64,000 bases of DNA from Acidobacteriota bacterium (GTDB lineage: Bacteria; Acidobacteriota; UBA4820; DSQY01), in assembly GCA_037444825.1 (NCBI GenBank), contig JBBILR010000004.1, forward strand, positions 55,536 to 119,535, given 5' to 3'. A model generated the notes under the pieces. That model saw only the letters and a list, made by a program, of their open reading frames with translations. It did no database searches and was not told the origin of the DNA. The position numbers and the translations under genes are program-made. Shown here in pieces: positions 1,440 to 6,213 of this stretch; positions within the stretch are counted from its first letter, which is position 1; the number at the start of each line of letters is the position of its first letter.

Positions 1440-2381
1440 GTGGGGGCCACCCTGAAAGTCGCCGTGGTGGGAGTGGGCAGCCTGGGGCAGCACCACGCCC
1501 GGATCCTGTCGGATCTCCCGGGAGTGCGGCTGGAGGCGGTGGTGGACGCCGACGGGGCGCGGGCCCGGGAGATCGCCGAACGGTACGGCACACGGGCGCT
1601 CCTCCCCGGCGACCCGATGCCGCCGGTGGACGGGGTGGTCCTCGCCGCCCCCACCCGGCTCCACCGGGATCTGGCGGTCTCCTTCCTGGAGCGGGGCGTG
1701 GGGGTGCTCTGCGAAAAGCCCATGGCCACCACCGTGGAGGAGTGCGACGCCATCCTGGGGGCCCGCCATCGTTCGGGGGCGCCCCTGCTCGTGGGCCACA
1801 TCGAGCACTTCAACCCCGGCGTCCAGGCCCTCCGAACCCACGTGGCGGAGCCCGGCTTCCTGGAGGTCCATCGCCTGGGCGTTTTCGTCCCCCGCTCGCT
1901 GGACGTGGACGTGGTCCTGGACCTCATGATCCACGACATCGAAATCGCCCAGTCCCTGGTGAAGCGCCCCCTGGACCGGGTGGAGGCGGTGGGGGTCTCG
2001 GTCCTCACCCCCCACGTGGACCTGGCCAACGCCCGCTTGACCTTCGCCGGGGGGTGCGTCGCCAACCTCACCGCCAGCCGCGTCTCCCGGGAGAAGGTCC
2101 GGAAGCTCCGCGTCTTCCAGAAGGACGCCTACCTCAGCGTGGACTACGCCGAGCAGTCGGTGGAGTGCTACCGGGTGGAGGAGGGGGGGCAGGGGCGGAC
2201 CATCCGCAAGGTGGAGGTGCCCGTGGAGAAGCGGGAGCCCCTCCGGTGCGAGCTGGAGCACTTCGCCGCCGTCCTCCGGGGGGAGGCGCCGCCGGAGGTG
2301 GGCGGGGAGTCGGCCCGGGAGGCCGTCGCCGCCGCCCAGGCCATTTTGGCATGCATGGCAAGAACGGCACGGTCCGGGTGA
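1440..2381 (+). CDS. Gfo/Idh/MocA family oxidoreductase (GnnA-like)
   Basis: GVGSLG Rossmann motif, CEKP, VGHIEHFNP, DVVLDLMIHD; GTG start after a purine-rich RBS. Confidence 0.88.
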   Translation: MGATLKVAVVGVGSLGQHHARILSDLPGVRLEAVVDADGARAREIAERYGTRALLPGDPMPPVDGVVLAAPTRLHRDLAVSFLERGVGVLCEKPMATTVEECDAILGARHRSGAPLLVGHIEHFNPGVQALRTHVAEPGFLEVHRLGVFVPRSLDVDVVLDLMIHDIEIAQSLVKRPLDRVEAVGVSVLTPHVDLANARLTFAGGCVANLTASRVSREKVRKLRVFQKDAYLSVDYAEQSVECYRVEEGGQGRTIRKVEVPVEKREPLRCELEHFAAVLRGEAPPEVGGESAREAVAAAQAILACMARTARSG

Positions 2382-3427
2382 ACCGCCTCCTGGGGTCCCT
2401 GCCGGAACTGCGGCGGGCCGGTTGGGCCTGGTCGGTGACGGGAGGCCCCTCCGGCCCCCACCGGGGCTTCGGCGGGTGGGCCCTCTCCGAGCCCGAAGCC
2501 CTTCCGGTGGAGCCGGAGACCCTCTGGGACCTCGCCTCCCTCACCAAGCCGCTGGCCACGGCCCTCCTGGCCCTTCGGGCTTCCGACGCCGCAGGGTTGG
2601 ACCTCGAGGAGCCCATTCCGGGGCTCTCCCCCCCCGCCACCCTGCTGGCCCTCCTTCGCCACGAGGGAGGCTTCCCCCCGTGGCTCCCCCTGTACGCCTT
2701 CGCCCGGGACCGGGCCGGGACGCTCCGGTGGCTTCTGCGGGAGGCCCCCCGCCGGGCCGACGGGCTTCCGGAGTACTCCTGCCCGGGCTACATCCTGGCG
2801 GGCCTCCTGGTGGAGGAGCGGCTGGGGGCCCCCCTTCCGGAACTCTTCCGGCGCTTCGTCGCCGGTCCCCTGGGGCTCGGCGGGGAGGAAGCCCTCTTCG
2901 CCCCACCCCATTCCCTCCGGAAGCGGACGGCGGCCACGGAGCTCTTTGGGGAGAGGGAGGCGGAGATGGCCCGCCCCTATGGGGCGGCTCCTCCCCCCTT
3001 CCGGCGCGGCCTGGCCTGGGGGGAGGTCCACGACGGCAACGCCCGTTTCCTGGGGGGCGCCGCCGGCAACGCGGGCCTCTTCGCCACCCTCCGGGGGGTG
3101 GAGGTCCTCGCGTCGGCCTTTTTCCCTTCCAGGCGGTTCCTTTCCCCCCGAGCCCTGGCCTGGGCGTGGGAGAGTCCCCACCCCCGGGGGGGCGTCCGGA
3201 GGACCGCCGGCTGGAAGGGCGGAGGCTCGGAGGGATGGGCCGCCGGGGCCTTCCTTCCGGAGGGGGCCGTGGGCCACGAAGGCTTCACCGGGACGGCCGT
3301 GTACCTGGACCGCCGTGCGGAAAGGGCCTATATCTTGCTTACGAACCGGATCCACCCGGTGCACCCGGGCACCGATTTCGGCCCGGTTCGGGCGGCCTTC
3401 CTGGAGCGGGCGAGGACTCTTCCATGA
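2378..3427 (+). CDS. Serine hydrolase, beta-lactamase class C/PBP family
   Basis: DLASLTK (SxxK), YSC, GEVHDGNA, GNAGLF, GHEGFTGT, LTNRIHP; GTGA overlap with the upstream stop. Confidence 0.85.
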   Translation: MNRLLGSLPELRRAGWAWSVTGGPSGPHRGFGGWALSEPEALPVEPETLWDLASLTKPLATALLALRASDAAGLDLEEPIPGLSPPATLLALLRHEGGFPPWLPLYAFARDRAGTLRWLLREAPRRADGLPEYSCPGYILAGLLVEERLGAPLPELFRRFVAGPLGLGGEEALFAPPHSLRKRTAATELFGEREAEMARPYGAAPPPFRRGLAWGEVHDGNARFLGGAAGNAGLFATLRGVEVLASAFFPSRRFLSPRALAWAWESPHPRGGVRRTAGWKGGGSEGWAAGAFLPEGAVGHEGFTGTAVYLDRRAERAYILLTNRIHPVHPGTDFGPVRAAFLERARTLP

Positions 3428-4503
3428 GGGGACTTCAACGGAAGGGCTACGGAACGAGCGACCGGGCCACCCAGGGATGGGCCTTCGCGGCGGCCCTTCT
3501 CCTCCACGGCCTGGTTCTTCTGGTGGCGGGTCACCAGTACGTGGTCTCCGCCTCCGACCCCACCCGCATGAACCAGGCGGCCCGCCAGCTTCCCAAGGTC
3601 GTCAACGGCAAGCCCGTCCGCTACGTCTACGTCCGGGACATGGTGCCCTCCCCCGAGCCGCCCCAGGACCCCACGCGCCTGTCGGACATGAACCGGCGGG
3701 GGGCCAGCCCCGACCCCCGGAAGGGGGATTCCCCGGACCCCACCTCCTTCGGGCGGAGCCCCGTCCGCCAGACGGGGGGGCCGGGGGAGGCGCCGGTGAC
3801 CCGCCCCTCGGTGCCCCCTTCGCCGGGCTCCCTTCCCGCTGTCGTGCCGGTCCCCCCACCGGGAGGCGTCGTCGCCCGGCGCGAGGAGAGGGGCCGGCAA
3901 GGCCGGGAGAAGGGACCCGAGCGGAACACCGCCGCGAGGCCCCAGGCCGGAAAGGCCCAGGAAACCCAGATGGGGAAACCGGCCACGGCCCCCGAGGGCC
4001 TTCCCCTCTCCGGGCCGCCGGAGGGGGGGAGCCGGGGGGTGCCGGAGGTGGGGGGGAGTCCCCCCGCGCCCGGCGCCTCGCCCCGGGGTCCGGGAATCGC
4101 CTCCCAGCTCCAGAAGATGATGGTGGGCTCCCTCCAAGGGGGCTACGCCAACCCCAACGCCAGCCGCCTCAACTCCGGCGCCCTCTCCTTCGACACCGCC
4201 GCCTGGGACCTGGGGCCCTACGCGAGGCAGGTCCAGGAGAAGGTGGAGAGCAACTGGCGCATCCCCGGCGCCCAGGAGGTCCTCCGCCAGAAGGGCTGGG
4301 TGGCCATCCGCTTCACCATCCAGAAGAACGGCGCCATCACCGACCTGGCGCTGGAGCGCCCCTCGGGGATCCCCTCCTACGACCAGGCGGCCCTCAACGC
4401 CCTGATCTCCTCCAACCCCCTCCCCCCCCTCCCACCGGAGGTGACCGCCCCCTCCCTGGGGGCCCTCTTCCGCTTCTTCTACAACCTGCCCCCCGGGGAT
4501 TGA
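3424..4503 (+). CDS. TonB/TolA family protein (N-terminal TM helix, Pro-rich linker, TonB C-terminal domain)
   Basis: AALLLHGLVLL TM helix with His; C-terminal Y..QVQEKVESNW..., IRFTIQKNG, SGIPSYDQAALNAL, PLPPLP. Confidence 0.85.
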   Translation: MRGLQRKGYGTSDRATQGWAFAAALLLHGLVLLVAGHQYVVSASDPTRMNQAARQLPKVVNGKPVRYVYVRDMVPSPEPPQDPTRLSDMNRRGASPDPRKGDSPDPTSFGRSPVRQTGGPGEAPVTRPSVPPSPGSLPAVVPVPPPGGVVARREERGRQGREKGPERNTAARPQAGKAQETQMGKPATAPEGLPLSGPPEGGSRGVPEVGGSPPAPGASPRGPGIASQLQKMMVGSLQGGYANPNASRLNSGALSFDTAAWDLGPYARQVQEKVESNWRIPGAQEVLRQKGWVAIRFTIQKNGAITDLALERPSGIPSYDQAALNALISSNPLPPLPPEVTAPSLGALFRFFYNLPPGD

Positions 4504-4535
4504 CCGGGAGACGCCGGCGTCCCCCTCCCCGTTCC

Positions 4536-4551
4536 TGGCAAGATTCTTGCA
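4536..4551 (+). promoter_or_regulatory. Sigma54 -24/-12 promoter of sRNA candidate 1
   Basis: TGGCAAGATTCTTGCA has GG-N10-GC spacing and one mismatch to TGGCAC-N5-TTGCW. Confidence 0.8.
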
Positions 4552-4561
4552 AGTGGATCGG

Positions 4562-4617
4562 TGTCCTCATACCCCCCTCCATTCCTCTCGTGGCCCCGCA
4601 AGGGGCTCTTCTTTTTT
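4562..4617 (+). ncRNA. Candidate sigma54-dependent small RNA 1 (C-rich core plus terminator)
   Basis: Predicted +1 near 4562; single-stranded ACCCCCCTCCATTCC; hairpin GCCCC-GCAA-GGGGC at 4593-4606; T6 at 4612-4617. Confidence 0.65.
4592..4617 (+). terminator. Intrinsic terminator of sRNA candidate 1
   Basis: GNRA-capped GC stem followed by CTTCTTTTTT. Confidence 0.75.
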
Positions 4618-4827
4618 GAGGGGAGCCCGGGTTGTGTCCCATGGGTCTCACTGTGGCGGTCCGGGGTTACAGAGGGTGGGGAGCCCTCCGGTGCCGGACC
4701 CGGCCGAGGGACCCGGTCTCCGGCCTTTGGTTCCGTCCCCTCGCCTCCCGGACCGTGCCGGAAGGGGGGGCGTCGGCGAATCCTGCCATATCGGCGCGGT
4801 GAACCCCCGAAAAAGGGCCTCCGTGGC

Positions 4828-4843
4828 TGGCACGAGCCTTGCT
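4828..4843 (+). promoter_or_regulatory. Sigma54 -24/-12 promoter of sRNA candidate 2
   Basis: TGGCACGAGCCTTGCT is a perfect TGGCAC-N5-TTGCW match. Confidence 0.88.
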
Positions 4844-4853
4844 TGAATCTCGG

Positions 4854-4913
4854 CATTGCCTAACCCCCTCCCTTCCCTCCGCGGGGGCCCTTCGGGGCCC
4901 CCGCCCTTTCTTT
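4854..4913 (+). ncRNA. Candidate sigma54-dependent small RNA 2 (C-rich core plus terminator)
   Basis: Predicted +1 near 4854; ACCCCCTCCCTTCCCTCC; perfect 10-bp hairpin at 4881-4904 with a TTCG loop, followed by CCTTTCTTT. Confidence 0.68.
4881..4913 (+). terminator. Intrinsic terminator of sRNA candidate 2
   Basis: GCGGGGGCCC-TTCG-GGGCCCCCGC followed by a T-rich tail. Confidence 0.75.
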
Positions 4914-4983
4914 CCCTCCAAGGCGCAGGGGTGTACACTGTGCCGCCTCGCCGGCATGGCCCCGGCCCTTGGAAAGGCGGACC

Positions 4984-6213
4984 GTGAAGCCCAAGAACCC
5001 CCTCGTCCTGGTCTTCCTCATCACCTTCATCGACCTCATGGGCTTCGGCATCGTCATCCCGCTCCTGCCCCTCTACGGAAAGACCTACAACCCTTCCCCC
5101 TGGGCCTTTGGCCTCCTCATGGCCTCCTACTCGCTGATGCAGTTCCTTTTCGCGCCGGTCATGGGACGGATCTCCGACCACTTCGGCCGAAGGCCGGTTC
5201 TCCTGCTCTCCCTGGCGGGAACGGTGGCGGGGTACCTCCTCTTTGCCCTCCAGGACTCCCTCGCCGGGCTTTTCCTGTCGCGGACCGTGGGGGGCGTCAT
5301 GGGGGCCAACGTCTCCACCGCCCAGGCGGTCATCGCCGACGTCACCGGCCCCGAGGAACGGGCCCGGGGGATGGGGCTCGTGGGGGCCGCCTTCGGACTC
5401 GGCTTCATCCTGGGGCCGGCCATCGGAGGAGCCTCCTACCGGCTGGGGCCGAGGTTTCCCGGCCTCTTCGCCGCCGGGCTGTCGGGGGCGGCTCTCCTCT
5501 TGGCCCTGCTCACCCTCCCGGAGACCTGGACCCCCGAGCGGCGGGCGCAGGCCCCCGCCTCCCGGAGGGGGTGGTTTTCGCTGTCCGCCCTGAGGCGGGC
5601 CCTCGCCCACCGGGAGGTCGGCGCCATCCTTCTCCTCTTCTTCCTCGCCACCTTCGCCTTCTCCAATTTCGAAGCCACCTTCGCCCTCCTCCTGCAGGGG
5701 CGCTTCGGCCTTTCCATGGCCGGCGTGGCCTACCTCTTCGTTTTCTTGGGGATCCTCGCCGCCGTCGTCCAGGGGGGGCTGGTGGGGCGGCTGGCGCGCC
5801 GGTACGGGGAACGGAAGTTGGTGGTCGCCGGGGCCCTCCTCCTGCTCCCGGCCTACGCCGCCCTCACCCGCGTGGCCACGTTGCCCCGCCTGGCGGCTCT
5901 TCTGGCCTTCCTGGCCCTGGGGGCGGGGCTCACGGGCCCCTCCCTCTCCTCCCTCGTCTCCCGCCTCTCCGCGGAGGACGAGCAGGGGGGCGTCCTGGGG
6001 CTCTACCAGTCCATGGCGTCCCTGGCGCGGATTATCGGGCCCTTTTGGGGGGTCTTCGCCTTCGAGCGCTTCGGGCAGGAGGCGCCGTACTGGACCGCCG
6101 CCGCGACGGGGGCGGGGGTGGCGGCCCGGGCGCGTCGGCTGGCCGGGGGGGGGACCGCGGCGGCCGCCGGGGCGGACCCGGCGGGCGAGGCGGGGGTCAG
6201 CCGTCCTGGTTGA
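4984..6213 (+). CDS. MFS transporter, TetA/DHA1 drug:H+ antiporter family
   Basis: About 12 TM segments; motif A GRISDHFGRRP; motif C GFILGPAIGG. Confidence 0.9.
   Translation: MKPKNPLVLVFLITFIDLMGFGIVIPLLPLYGKTYNPSPWAFGLLMASYSLMQFLFAPVMGRISDHFGRRPVLLLSLAGTVAGYLLFALQDSLAGLFLSRTVGGVMGANVSTAQAVIADVTGPEERARGMGLVGAAFGLGFILGPAIGGASYRLGPRFPGLFAAGLSGAALLLALLTLPETWTPERRAQAPASRRGWFSLSALRRALAHREVGAILLLFFLATFAFSNFEATFALLLQGRFGLSMAGVAYLFVFLGILAAVVQGGLVGRLARRYGERKLVVAGALLLLPAYAALTRVATLPRLAALLAFLALGAGLTGPSLSSLVSRLSAEDEQGGVLGLYQSMASLARIIGPFWGVFAFERFGQEAPYWTAAATGAGVAARARRLAGGGTAAAAGADPAGEAGVSRPG

Follow-up and report, generated by a model that had tools for sequence, protein, structure and literature searches.

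The Qrr RNAs of Vibrio are about 100 nt long and possess multiple stem-loops, a conserved single-stranded seed and an intrinsic terminator. Myxococcus Pxr and P. stutzeri NfiS are sigma-54-dependent, the CcsR RNAs depend on a heat-shock sigma factor, and RsaE/RoxS and LhrC1-5 of Firmicutes carry unpaired C-rich motifs that pair with G-rich Shine-Dalgarno (SD) regions, LhrC occurring in sibling copies. The Qrr RNAs are described as sibling small RNAs (sRNAs) with sigma-54 promoters, activated by the enhancer-binding protein LuxO (bioRxiv 10.1101/2021.07.01.450815), and Pseudomonas NrsZ as induced by NtrB/C (PMC4253122). The cuckoo family is described as a set of multi-copy, often clustered sRNAs whose only conserved sequence, the C-rich CCUCCUCCC, is located in the loops of 2-4 adjacent hairpins, resembles the anti-SD sequence and is thought to occlude ribosome-binding sites (PMC4615179). 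The locus considered here belongs to a 64,000-nt stretch of DNA, hereafter the window, from an Acidobacteriota bacterium (GCA_037444825.1, contig JBBILR010000004.1, positions 55,536-119,535 of the forward strand). The source genome, of 2.55 Mb and 69.9% G+C, comes from an organism known from a metagenome-assembled genome alone. In this window, the gap that separates a TonB-C-domain gene from an MFS transporter gene holds two short units that are probably genes for small regulatory RNAs, each transcribed with sigma-54 and intrinsically terminated, with seeds acting in trans. The pair forms a predicted new RNA family of a known kind, that of sigma-54-dependent sibling sRNAs with C-rich seeds. 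By analogy, its closest functional counterpart is the Vibrio Qrr set, while the closest counterpart of its seed is the cuckoo/CcsR family.

A sequence-only reading of the window had proposed two sigma-54-driven, self-terminating RNA cassettes in this gap, and the promoter, C-rich tract, hairpin and T-rich tail of both units are indeed present at the coordinates it gave. The gap itself measures 465 bp (4504-4968) and not the 480 bp it had reported. The unit-1 hairpin that it placed at 4593-4606 is confirmed and extends to 4592-4607 by a closing G.U pair (GGCCCC-GCAA-GGGGCU). Its description of the gap as free of open reading frames (ORFs) stands in part: mechanical ORFs of 56-125 amino acids cross the gap, in DNA of 70% G+C, and none of the five tested has a Pfam match at E <= 0.01. 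A tRNA/tmRNA search of 4200-5200 found none. The elements of the two units are the following:

4536-4551, plus strand: sigma-54 promoter P1, TGGCAAGATTCTTGCA (TGGCAA-N5-TTGCA; GG at -24, GC at -12)
4562-4617, plus strand: predicted sRNA 1, ~56 nt, its 5' end placed from the -12 element and its 3' end from the U-tract
4565-4587, plus strand: C-rich unpaired seed of sRNA 1, CCUCAUACCCCCCUCCAUUCCUC, unpaired in the single-sequence and consensus folds
4592-4617, plus strand: terminator 1, a 6-bp hairpin with a GCAA loop (4592-4607), then CUUCUUUUUU
4828-4843, plus strand: sigma-54 promoter P2, TGGCACGAGCCTTGCT (TGGCAC-N5-TTGCT, perfect consensus)
4854-4915, plus strand: predicted sRNA 2, ~58-62 nt, with putative ends; 66.1 bits with covariance model R2
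4858-4880, plus strand: C-rich unpaired seed of sRNA 2, GCCUAACCCCCUCCCUUCCCUCC
4881-4915, plus strand: terminator 2, a 10-bp hairpin with a UUCG loop (4881-4904), then CCUUUCUUUCC

Covariance models R1 (unit 1) and R2 (unit 2) were built from the transcripts without their promoters. R1 scores 72.4 bits at this locus and yields one strong match (45.1-77 bits, E <= 1.7e-13) in each of the 25 genomes of one Acidobacteriota family, which represent six genera (g1 to g6). All eight strong R1 matches outside the training set are preceded by TGG(C/T)A-N6-TTGC, ending 5-8 nt before the start of the model. This recovery of the promoter by a promoter-blind RNA search is the strongest single argument that the units are what they are predicted to be. 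R2 retrieves unit 2 in 24/25 family genomes (E <= 7.7e-6). The two units form a tandem, same-strand pair in 23/25 genomes, with promoter-to-promoter distances of 216-315 nt in 22 genomes and 557 nt in one; in G016 they are carried by separate contigs. Blastn against 40 relatives gave a consistent picture, as the units are conserved separately with little else of the gap (20/24 family genomes, 0/16 outside), and the inter-unit spacer is kept in the nearest relative alone. The conservation of promoter and core that the earlier reading had required in relatives is family-wide. The records of the relatives are metagenome-assembled and labelled Acidobacteriota or Thermoanaerobaculia. The sole family genome lacking a unit-2 match is G013 (genus g6, 97% complete), whose unit-1 promoter is also the only one to read TGGTA.

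Of the 30 genomes that represent the class here, 25 belong to the family, and no true copy was found in the 5 others: the model matched a tRNA 3' end with a terminator in G026 and G028, and its match in G027 lacks a sigma-54 promoter. When 151 genomes were sampled evenly across the phylum, the 11 family members among them all scored 45 bits or more, the best of the 140 others reaching 29.4 bits. Among six full-length matches from other genomes of the phylum, TGGCA-N6-TTGC is found in none. When 185,579 species genomes were scanned for the pattern, 25 matches came up, of which 14 are complete cassettes, all labelled Acidobacteria, and 11 are chance matches devoid of promoter or hairpin. A metagenome scan reported 84 stretches; among the 80 listed, ten contigs have the strict promoter and one a TGGCAC-N5-ATGC variant, the other 69 having no sigma-54 promoter. 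Some blastn matches were also set aside: in L011 and L014, both of genus g3, the matched sequence is another gene's C/U-rich 3' end and terminator, the true g3 copies being found later by R1, and that of L020 has no sigma-54 promoter.

P1 and P2 both display the GG-N10-GC spacing and are assigned to the TGGCAC-N5-TTGCW class. TGGCA-N6-TTGC occurs twice in the window, both times in the gap and on the same strand, for a chance expectation of 0.17 +/- 0.47 (2/100 shuffles reach two matches). The whole genome contains, on both strands, 24 such sites including these two, and for most of the other 22 a ribosome-binding site and a start codon follow immediately, as expected of real sigma-54 promoters. 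The start sites at 4562 and 4854 were set by counting the C of the -12 GC as -12. In the 25 unit-1 copies the promoter tally is T25 G25 G25 C24 A25 for the upstream box and T25 T25 G25 C25 for the downstream box; unit-2 promoters keep TGGCA in 24/24 copies and TTGC in 23/24, their table holding one extra cross-match row, which is unit 1 of G002. In the alignments (17 unit-1 and 16 unit-2 sequences), the boxes TGGCA and TTGC are invariant while the 6-nt spacer, the bases between promoter and +1 and the upstream flank vary. The assignment of both promoters to sigma-54 in the sequence-only reading is supported by this contrast, TGG(C/T)A and TTGC being kept in 25/25 unit-1 copies amid freely varying spacer and flanks, and the rpoN gene that it presupposed is encoded in the genome (Sigma54_DBD, 210.8 bits). 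The genome also has 24 matches to Sigma54_activat, of which 19 reach 126.9 bits or more, and Hfq (family matches of 63.6 and 37.1 bits). The pair offers a handle on sigma-54 control in a lineage where a 2.5-Mb genome has as many as 19 strong matches to the enhancer-binding-protein domain.

In their minimum free energy (MFE) folds, both predicted transcripts consist of a hairpin alone, with the 5' 27-30 nt unpaired. The consensus folds of both families agree, exhibiting one terminator hairpin and an unpaired C-rich part, and both hairpins were recovered by a terminator scan. Unit 1 ends in T6 at 4612-4617; the tail of unit 2, CCTTTCTTTCC at 4905-4915, is interrupted, with 6 U in 11 nt. The fold of unit 2 is unusually stable (-26.4 kcal/mol, z = -3.69, 0/200 shuffles as good). 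Its stem is paired in 98.6% of cells, with compensatory changes in 4/9 pairs, values that 0/500 shuffles reach and that drop sharply when the register is slid. The unit-1 stem is paired in 94.7% of cells across its 25 copies. The conserved stretch starts within a few bases of the predicted +1 and does not extend past the U-tract, with a single terminator hairpin in the consensus, in line with the short, self-terminating RNAs envisaged from the sequence alone.

A 23-nt strand-specific C-rich block, invariant across the six genera, starts at +4/+5 and is always followed by the hairpin and U-tract, and CCCTCCAT is invariant in 25/25 unit-1 copies. The core that the earlier reading described as shared is found as such, ACCCCCCTCCATTCC in unit 1 and ACCCCCTCCCTTCC in unit 2. 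A sibling relation with a single-stranded seed is likewise upheld: CCCUCC...UUCC is common to both, R2 also recognises unit 1, with 22.9 bits (E = 0.008 genome-wide; 24.7 bits for unit 1 of G002), and the hairpins differ. Just 6/224 predicted terminators of the genome are preceded by 28 nt that are both rich in C (>=12 C) and poor in G (<=2 G), two of which are these units, so the tract is specific and not an effect of composition. Taken together, gene structure, promoter type, terminators, sibling relation and family-wide conservation of the predicted genes are supported. As evidence drawn from genomes alone the case is unusually clean: the sequence itself reveals promoter type, start, seed and terminator, with confirmation from the conservation across 25 species-level genomes, and a covariance model is ready for annotating genomes of the family.

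Like Vibrio Qrr1-5, the pair consists of siblings that each have their own sigma-54 promoter, a conserved single-stranded seed and an intrinsic terminator. However, the Acidobacteriota RNAs are about half the size (56-62 nt), have one hairpin rather than several and a C-rich, 5'-terminal seed, and their two genes stand in tandem; cmscan of 3500-6000 (E <= 10) gives no Qrr match. With cuckoo/CcsR1-4 of Alphaproteobacteria (CcsR1, RF02791) they have in common clustered copies and a C-rich motif, but this motif lies in an unpaired 5' tract, the loop of the sole hairpin is GCAA or UUCG, and the promoters are of the sigma-54 type. The single CcsR1 match in 3500-6000 scores 13.1 bits (E = 9.2), well under the cut-off of 65.3, and falls inside the MFS gene, with none at the units. 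Since there is no model match, a single hairpin and a motif that is not in loops, the units are placed outside both the Qrr and the cuckoo/CcsR families. NrsZ, NfiS and Pxr resemble them as sRNA genes under sigma-54 and an NtrC-type activator; those are single, longer and tied to a known nitrogen or developmental signal, with no Rfam match here. RsaE/RoxS and LhrC differ in phylum, promoters and architecture, again with no Rfam match at the locus. Acido-1 and Acido-Lenti-1 (Rfam RF01686 and RF01687; PMC2864571) have no match in 3500-6000 either, and the same scan (E <= 10) returned no relevant match to any named family, as the sequence-only reading had supposed. In a limited literature set, no description was found of a sigma-54-dependent or C-rich-seed sRNA in Acidobacteriota, or of the motif. 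The pair is a testable candidate for a Qrr-like circuit of one activator and sibling sRNAs outside Proteobacteria.

The mechanism suggested by these features would be as follows. Sigma-54 RNA polymerase would transcribe each unit from its own -24/-12 promoter, firing requiring an enhancer-binding protein encoded elsewhere in the genome, and each transcript would end ~56-62 nt further, at its own intrinsic terminator. The resulting RNAs, putatively diverged siblings with the core CCCUCC(C)(A)UUCC, would present an unstructured, C-rich and almost G-free 5' seed followed by the terminator hairpin and U-tail. This layout is typical of Hfq-associated base-pairing sRNAs, and the RNAs may use Hfq. 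When the activator is on, they would accumulate and their seeds would pair in trans with G-rich stretches of mRNAs, most likely GGAGG-type SD regions, lowering translation or stability.

A number of results weigh against this proposal. A search of sequencing runs for the locus returned no RNA run, and DNA runs with shares of at most 0.20. P1 deviates from the class at the sixth promoter position, which is A and not C. The fold of unit 1 is not unusual (-12.1 kcal/mol, z = -0.67, 44/200 shuffles as good), and its stem is matched or beaten by 135/500 shuffle controls. Its 25 copies display no compensatory change and, because the GCCCC/GGGGC core never varies, the unit-1 stem provides no covariation support. 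No enhancer-like site was found upstream of P1, and tblastn with the genome's own AAA+ domain found no enhancer-binding-protein gene within +/-10 kb in 11 genomes. Nor did targets emerge. Seed-complementary 13-mers (<=1 mismatch) are about as frequent as those of a reversed control in 25 genomes, e.g., 8 versus 7 in the own genome. At 2119 start regions, which were called crudely, the lowest duplex energies of the true seeds (-42.1 and -39.5) do not improve on those of the reversed ones (-39.6 and -40.9), and the +/-10 kb neighbourhoods of 11 genomes contain no orthologous target site. A genome-wide duplex scan was swamped by G-rich DNA, and the 5' regions of neighbouring genes gave nothing notable. 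The failure of these target searches is weak evidence, since a single whole genome with home-made gene calls was all they covered.

The surroundings of the two units comprise these further features:

2422-4503, plus strand: TonB-C-domain gene (Pfam TonB_2, 54.9 bits, C-terminal), with its stop at 4503 and an uncertain true start
4632-4656, no strand assigned: low-confidence candidate regulator site A, of TGTGTC...GTCTCAC type, recognised by eye
4783-4797, no strand assigned: candidate enhancer (upstream activating sequence), palindrome CTGCC-ATATC-GGCGC, 45 nt upstream of P2
4969-6213, plus strand: downstream MFS transporter gene (Pfam MFS_1, 229.5 bits)

These flanks bear on a rival explanation in which the units are cis-acting parts of their neighbours, unit 1 being the 3' untranslated region (3'UTR) and terminator of the TonB-C gene and unit 2 a sigma-54 leader with an attenuator gating the downstream gene, here MFS. 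From the TonB-C stop to P1 there are 33 nt here and only a few nt in G001, G003 and G004, and since no terminator lies before unit 1, the TonB-C mRNA must carry the unit-1 sequence at its 3' end. A TonB-C homologue precedes unit 1 in 19/25 loci (g1, g3, g4 and g6). In g5 and g2, however, the upstream gene is a divergent oxidoreductase, and a plain 3'UTR would have no need for the sigma-54 promoter that unit 1 keeps in 25/25 copies. On the other side, read-through into the MFS gene is possible, a further point against two self-contained sRNA genes, because the unit-2 U-tract is weak, MFS starts 54 nt after it and a simple scan predicts no sigma-70-like promoter before it; in g6, a downstream ATG follows the unit-2 hairpin by ~25 nt. 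The gene in this position nevertheless varies by genus, MFS following the pair in 8/25 loci, all g1 and g6, whereas g4 and g5 have a kinase-like gene there and g3 a convergent ferritin-like gene. As the flanking genes change between genera, the pair behaves as an independent module, and the seeds are near-invariant despite these changes. A TonB-C 3' end carrying unit 1 and a possible read-through into MFS are compatible with sRNA genes, yet keep the cis-acting explanation alive; the roles are not exclusive, as an sRNA may also come from an mRNA 3' end or permit read-through. Overall, the cis-acting explanation is unlikely.

The long, extremely conserved and low-complexity seed would also suit RNAs that bind a protein or the ribosome instead of specific mRNAs, by titrating a C-rich-RNA-binding protein or Hfq or by serving as a general anti-SD-like decoy. 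The target searches gave no specific complementary mRNA, although they were crude enough for this failure to say little, and the four other C-rich, G-poor pre-terminator tracts of the genome could point to a common partner, although no candidate protein emerged. Pairing of C-rich seeds with SD regions is, moreover, a well-described mode of action (PMC4615179). We regard such protein or ribosome binding as quite unlikely. Sigma-54 holoenzyme can occupy promoters without firing, and P1 and P2 might be poised or silent DNA-level sites beside ordinary terminators, with no functional RNA. This would leave unexplained both the 23-nt C-rich block that starts at +4/+5 in six genera, with its hairpin and U-tract, and the compensatory changes of unit 2, which makes it very improbable. 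Two genes for trans-acting, sigma-54-dependent sRNAs are the probable explanation.

Candidate regulatory sites precede P2. In 15/23 two-unit genomes, a palindrome GYGCC-N5-GGCRY occupies the positions -57 to -60 and/or -76 to -80 relative to P2, and a relaxed version lies at -45/-44 in the source genome and G002. Within the source genome, the relaxed palindrome occurs upstream of 1/24 sigma-54 sites, that of P2, and we interpret it as a candidate enhancer for a dedicated activator. In g1, g3, g4 and g6, visual inspection shows TGTGTC-N6-GACACA or GACTCA(C) strings where the inter-unit spacer begins. Further upstream, ~10 kb are syntenic in four genera and encode a ClpB-like ATPase, BamA (Omp85 with POTRA domains), LpxD, LpxA and a Gfo/Idh/MocA oxidoreductase; the presence of BamA, LpxD and LpxA places the pair at the end of an outer-membrane biogenesis cluster.

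A more specific version of the sRNA explanation, possible but rather unlikely, would make the pair the dedicated output of one activator in a LuxO-to-Qrr-like circuit. The pair would then serve an envelope programme of this Acidobacteriota lineage, controlled by sigma-54, as its post-transcriptional arm, with seeds that silence mRNAs with strong SD sequences. The P2 palindrome, singular among the sigma-54 promoters of the genome, would mark this circuit, and the context would be provided by the end of the bamA-lpxD-lpxA-...-tonB-like cluster, together with lpxC and two pilin-like genes with sigma-54-type promoters. The anti-SD-like seeds would then shut down, e.g., outer-membrane protein mRNAs. 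By analogy, the role would be like that of the enterobacterial sigma-E-dependent MicA/RybB/MicL, wired via sigma-54.

Two minor observations concern the flanking genes. A Beta-lactamase-family ORF at 1742-3427 (98.2 bits) overlaps the longest TonB-C ORF in another frame, hence the uncertainty over where the TonB-C gene truly begins. After unit 2 and ahead of the MFS gene, GGTGTACACTGTGCC (4931-4945) contains the palindrome TGTACA and may be an operator of the MFS gene; GGTGTACACT occupies the same place in the nearest relative, G002.

Other sigma-54-type promoters or C-rich tracts are found in the genome. A third ORF-less sigma-54-type promoter, TGGCACGCTCCTTGCG, is located outside the window on the minus strand (L128:1501-1771 = G000:C2:51940-52210), just downstream of a 107-residue Fe-S_biosyn (IscA/HesB) gene that has a sigma-54-type promoter as well. 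Behind TGGCACGCTCCTTGCG comes a predicted RNA of ~230 nt comprising two modules of GAGGAUCCCCCCUCCUC and a GC hairpin, with a T6 end, whose C-rich loops resemble the cuckoo design. This RNA is kept in 17/25 family genomes (4/6 genera), with a promoter that is clear in g1 and variant in g6. A fourth ORF-less promoter of this type, TGGCAGAAAGTTTGCT (L140:~990-1152 = G000:C12, promoter at 5451, minus strand), is followed ~130 nt further by CCCUAACCCCUCUA, a hairpin and T7, and then directly by another sigma-54-type promoter driving a gene. The lpxC gene (Pfam LpxC, 349 bits; L141:588-1516 = G000:C19:31387-32315, minus strand) is preceded by the sigma-54 consensus TGGCACGGGCTTTGCT, and its 3'UTR, near C19:31352, has a C/U-rich, G-poor tract and terminator with a weak R1 match (16.9 bits). 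An Rfam scan of the TGGCACGCTCCTTGCG, TGGCAGAAAGTTTGCT and lpxC loci gave no match. The pilin-like genes mentioned above were recognised by eye from their N-termini.

Besides the two units and the lpxC 3'UTR, the six terminators with C-rich, G-poor tracts are those at G000:C7:93924(+), C7:13813(-) and C15:47602(-). One of these three follows an Hsp20-like gene (by eye), and another resembles an independent intergenic RNA of ~110 nt. Taken with the pair, these other C-rich RNAs suggest that anti-SD-like occlusion of ribosome-binding sites may be a recurrent regulatory theme in this group.

Sequences reminiscent of the seed were also encountered beyond the pair. In genus g4, L087, L089 and L091 (R1, 30-34 bits) have CCAAUCCUCCAUCCCUCC, a hairpin and a U-tract directly after a gene stop codon and no sigma-54 promoter, and may be a 3'UTR-borne relative of the seed. 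In an Acidobacteriota genome of another family, L127 (G033:C1:2082396-2082459; 22.6 bits) resembles the seed design, with AUCCCCUUUACCUCCAUCCAUUCCUUC and a terminator and without a sigma-54 promoter. Finally, eleven near-identical metagenome contigs (L145, L147, L159, L167, L171, L175, L180, L183, L198, L205 and L209) carry GGAGCGTGTTTTGCT (GG-N10-GC, TTGCT), then a C-rich tract ending in CCCUCCAUCCCCUCC and a hairpin, a cassette that may be a relative in another lineage.

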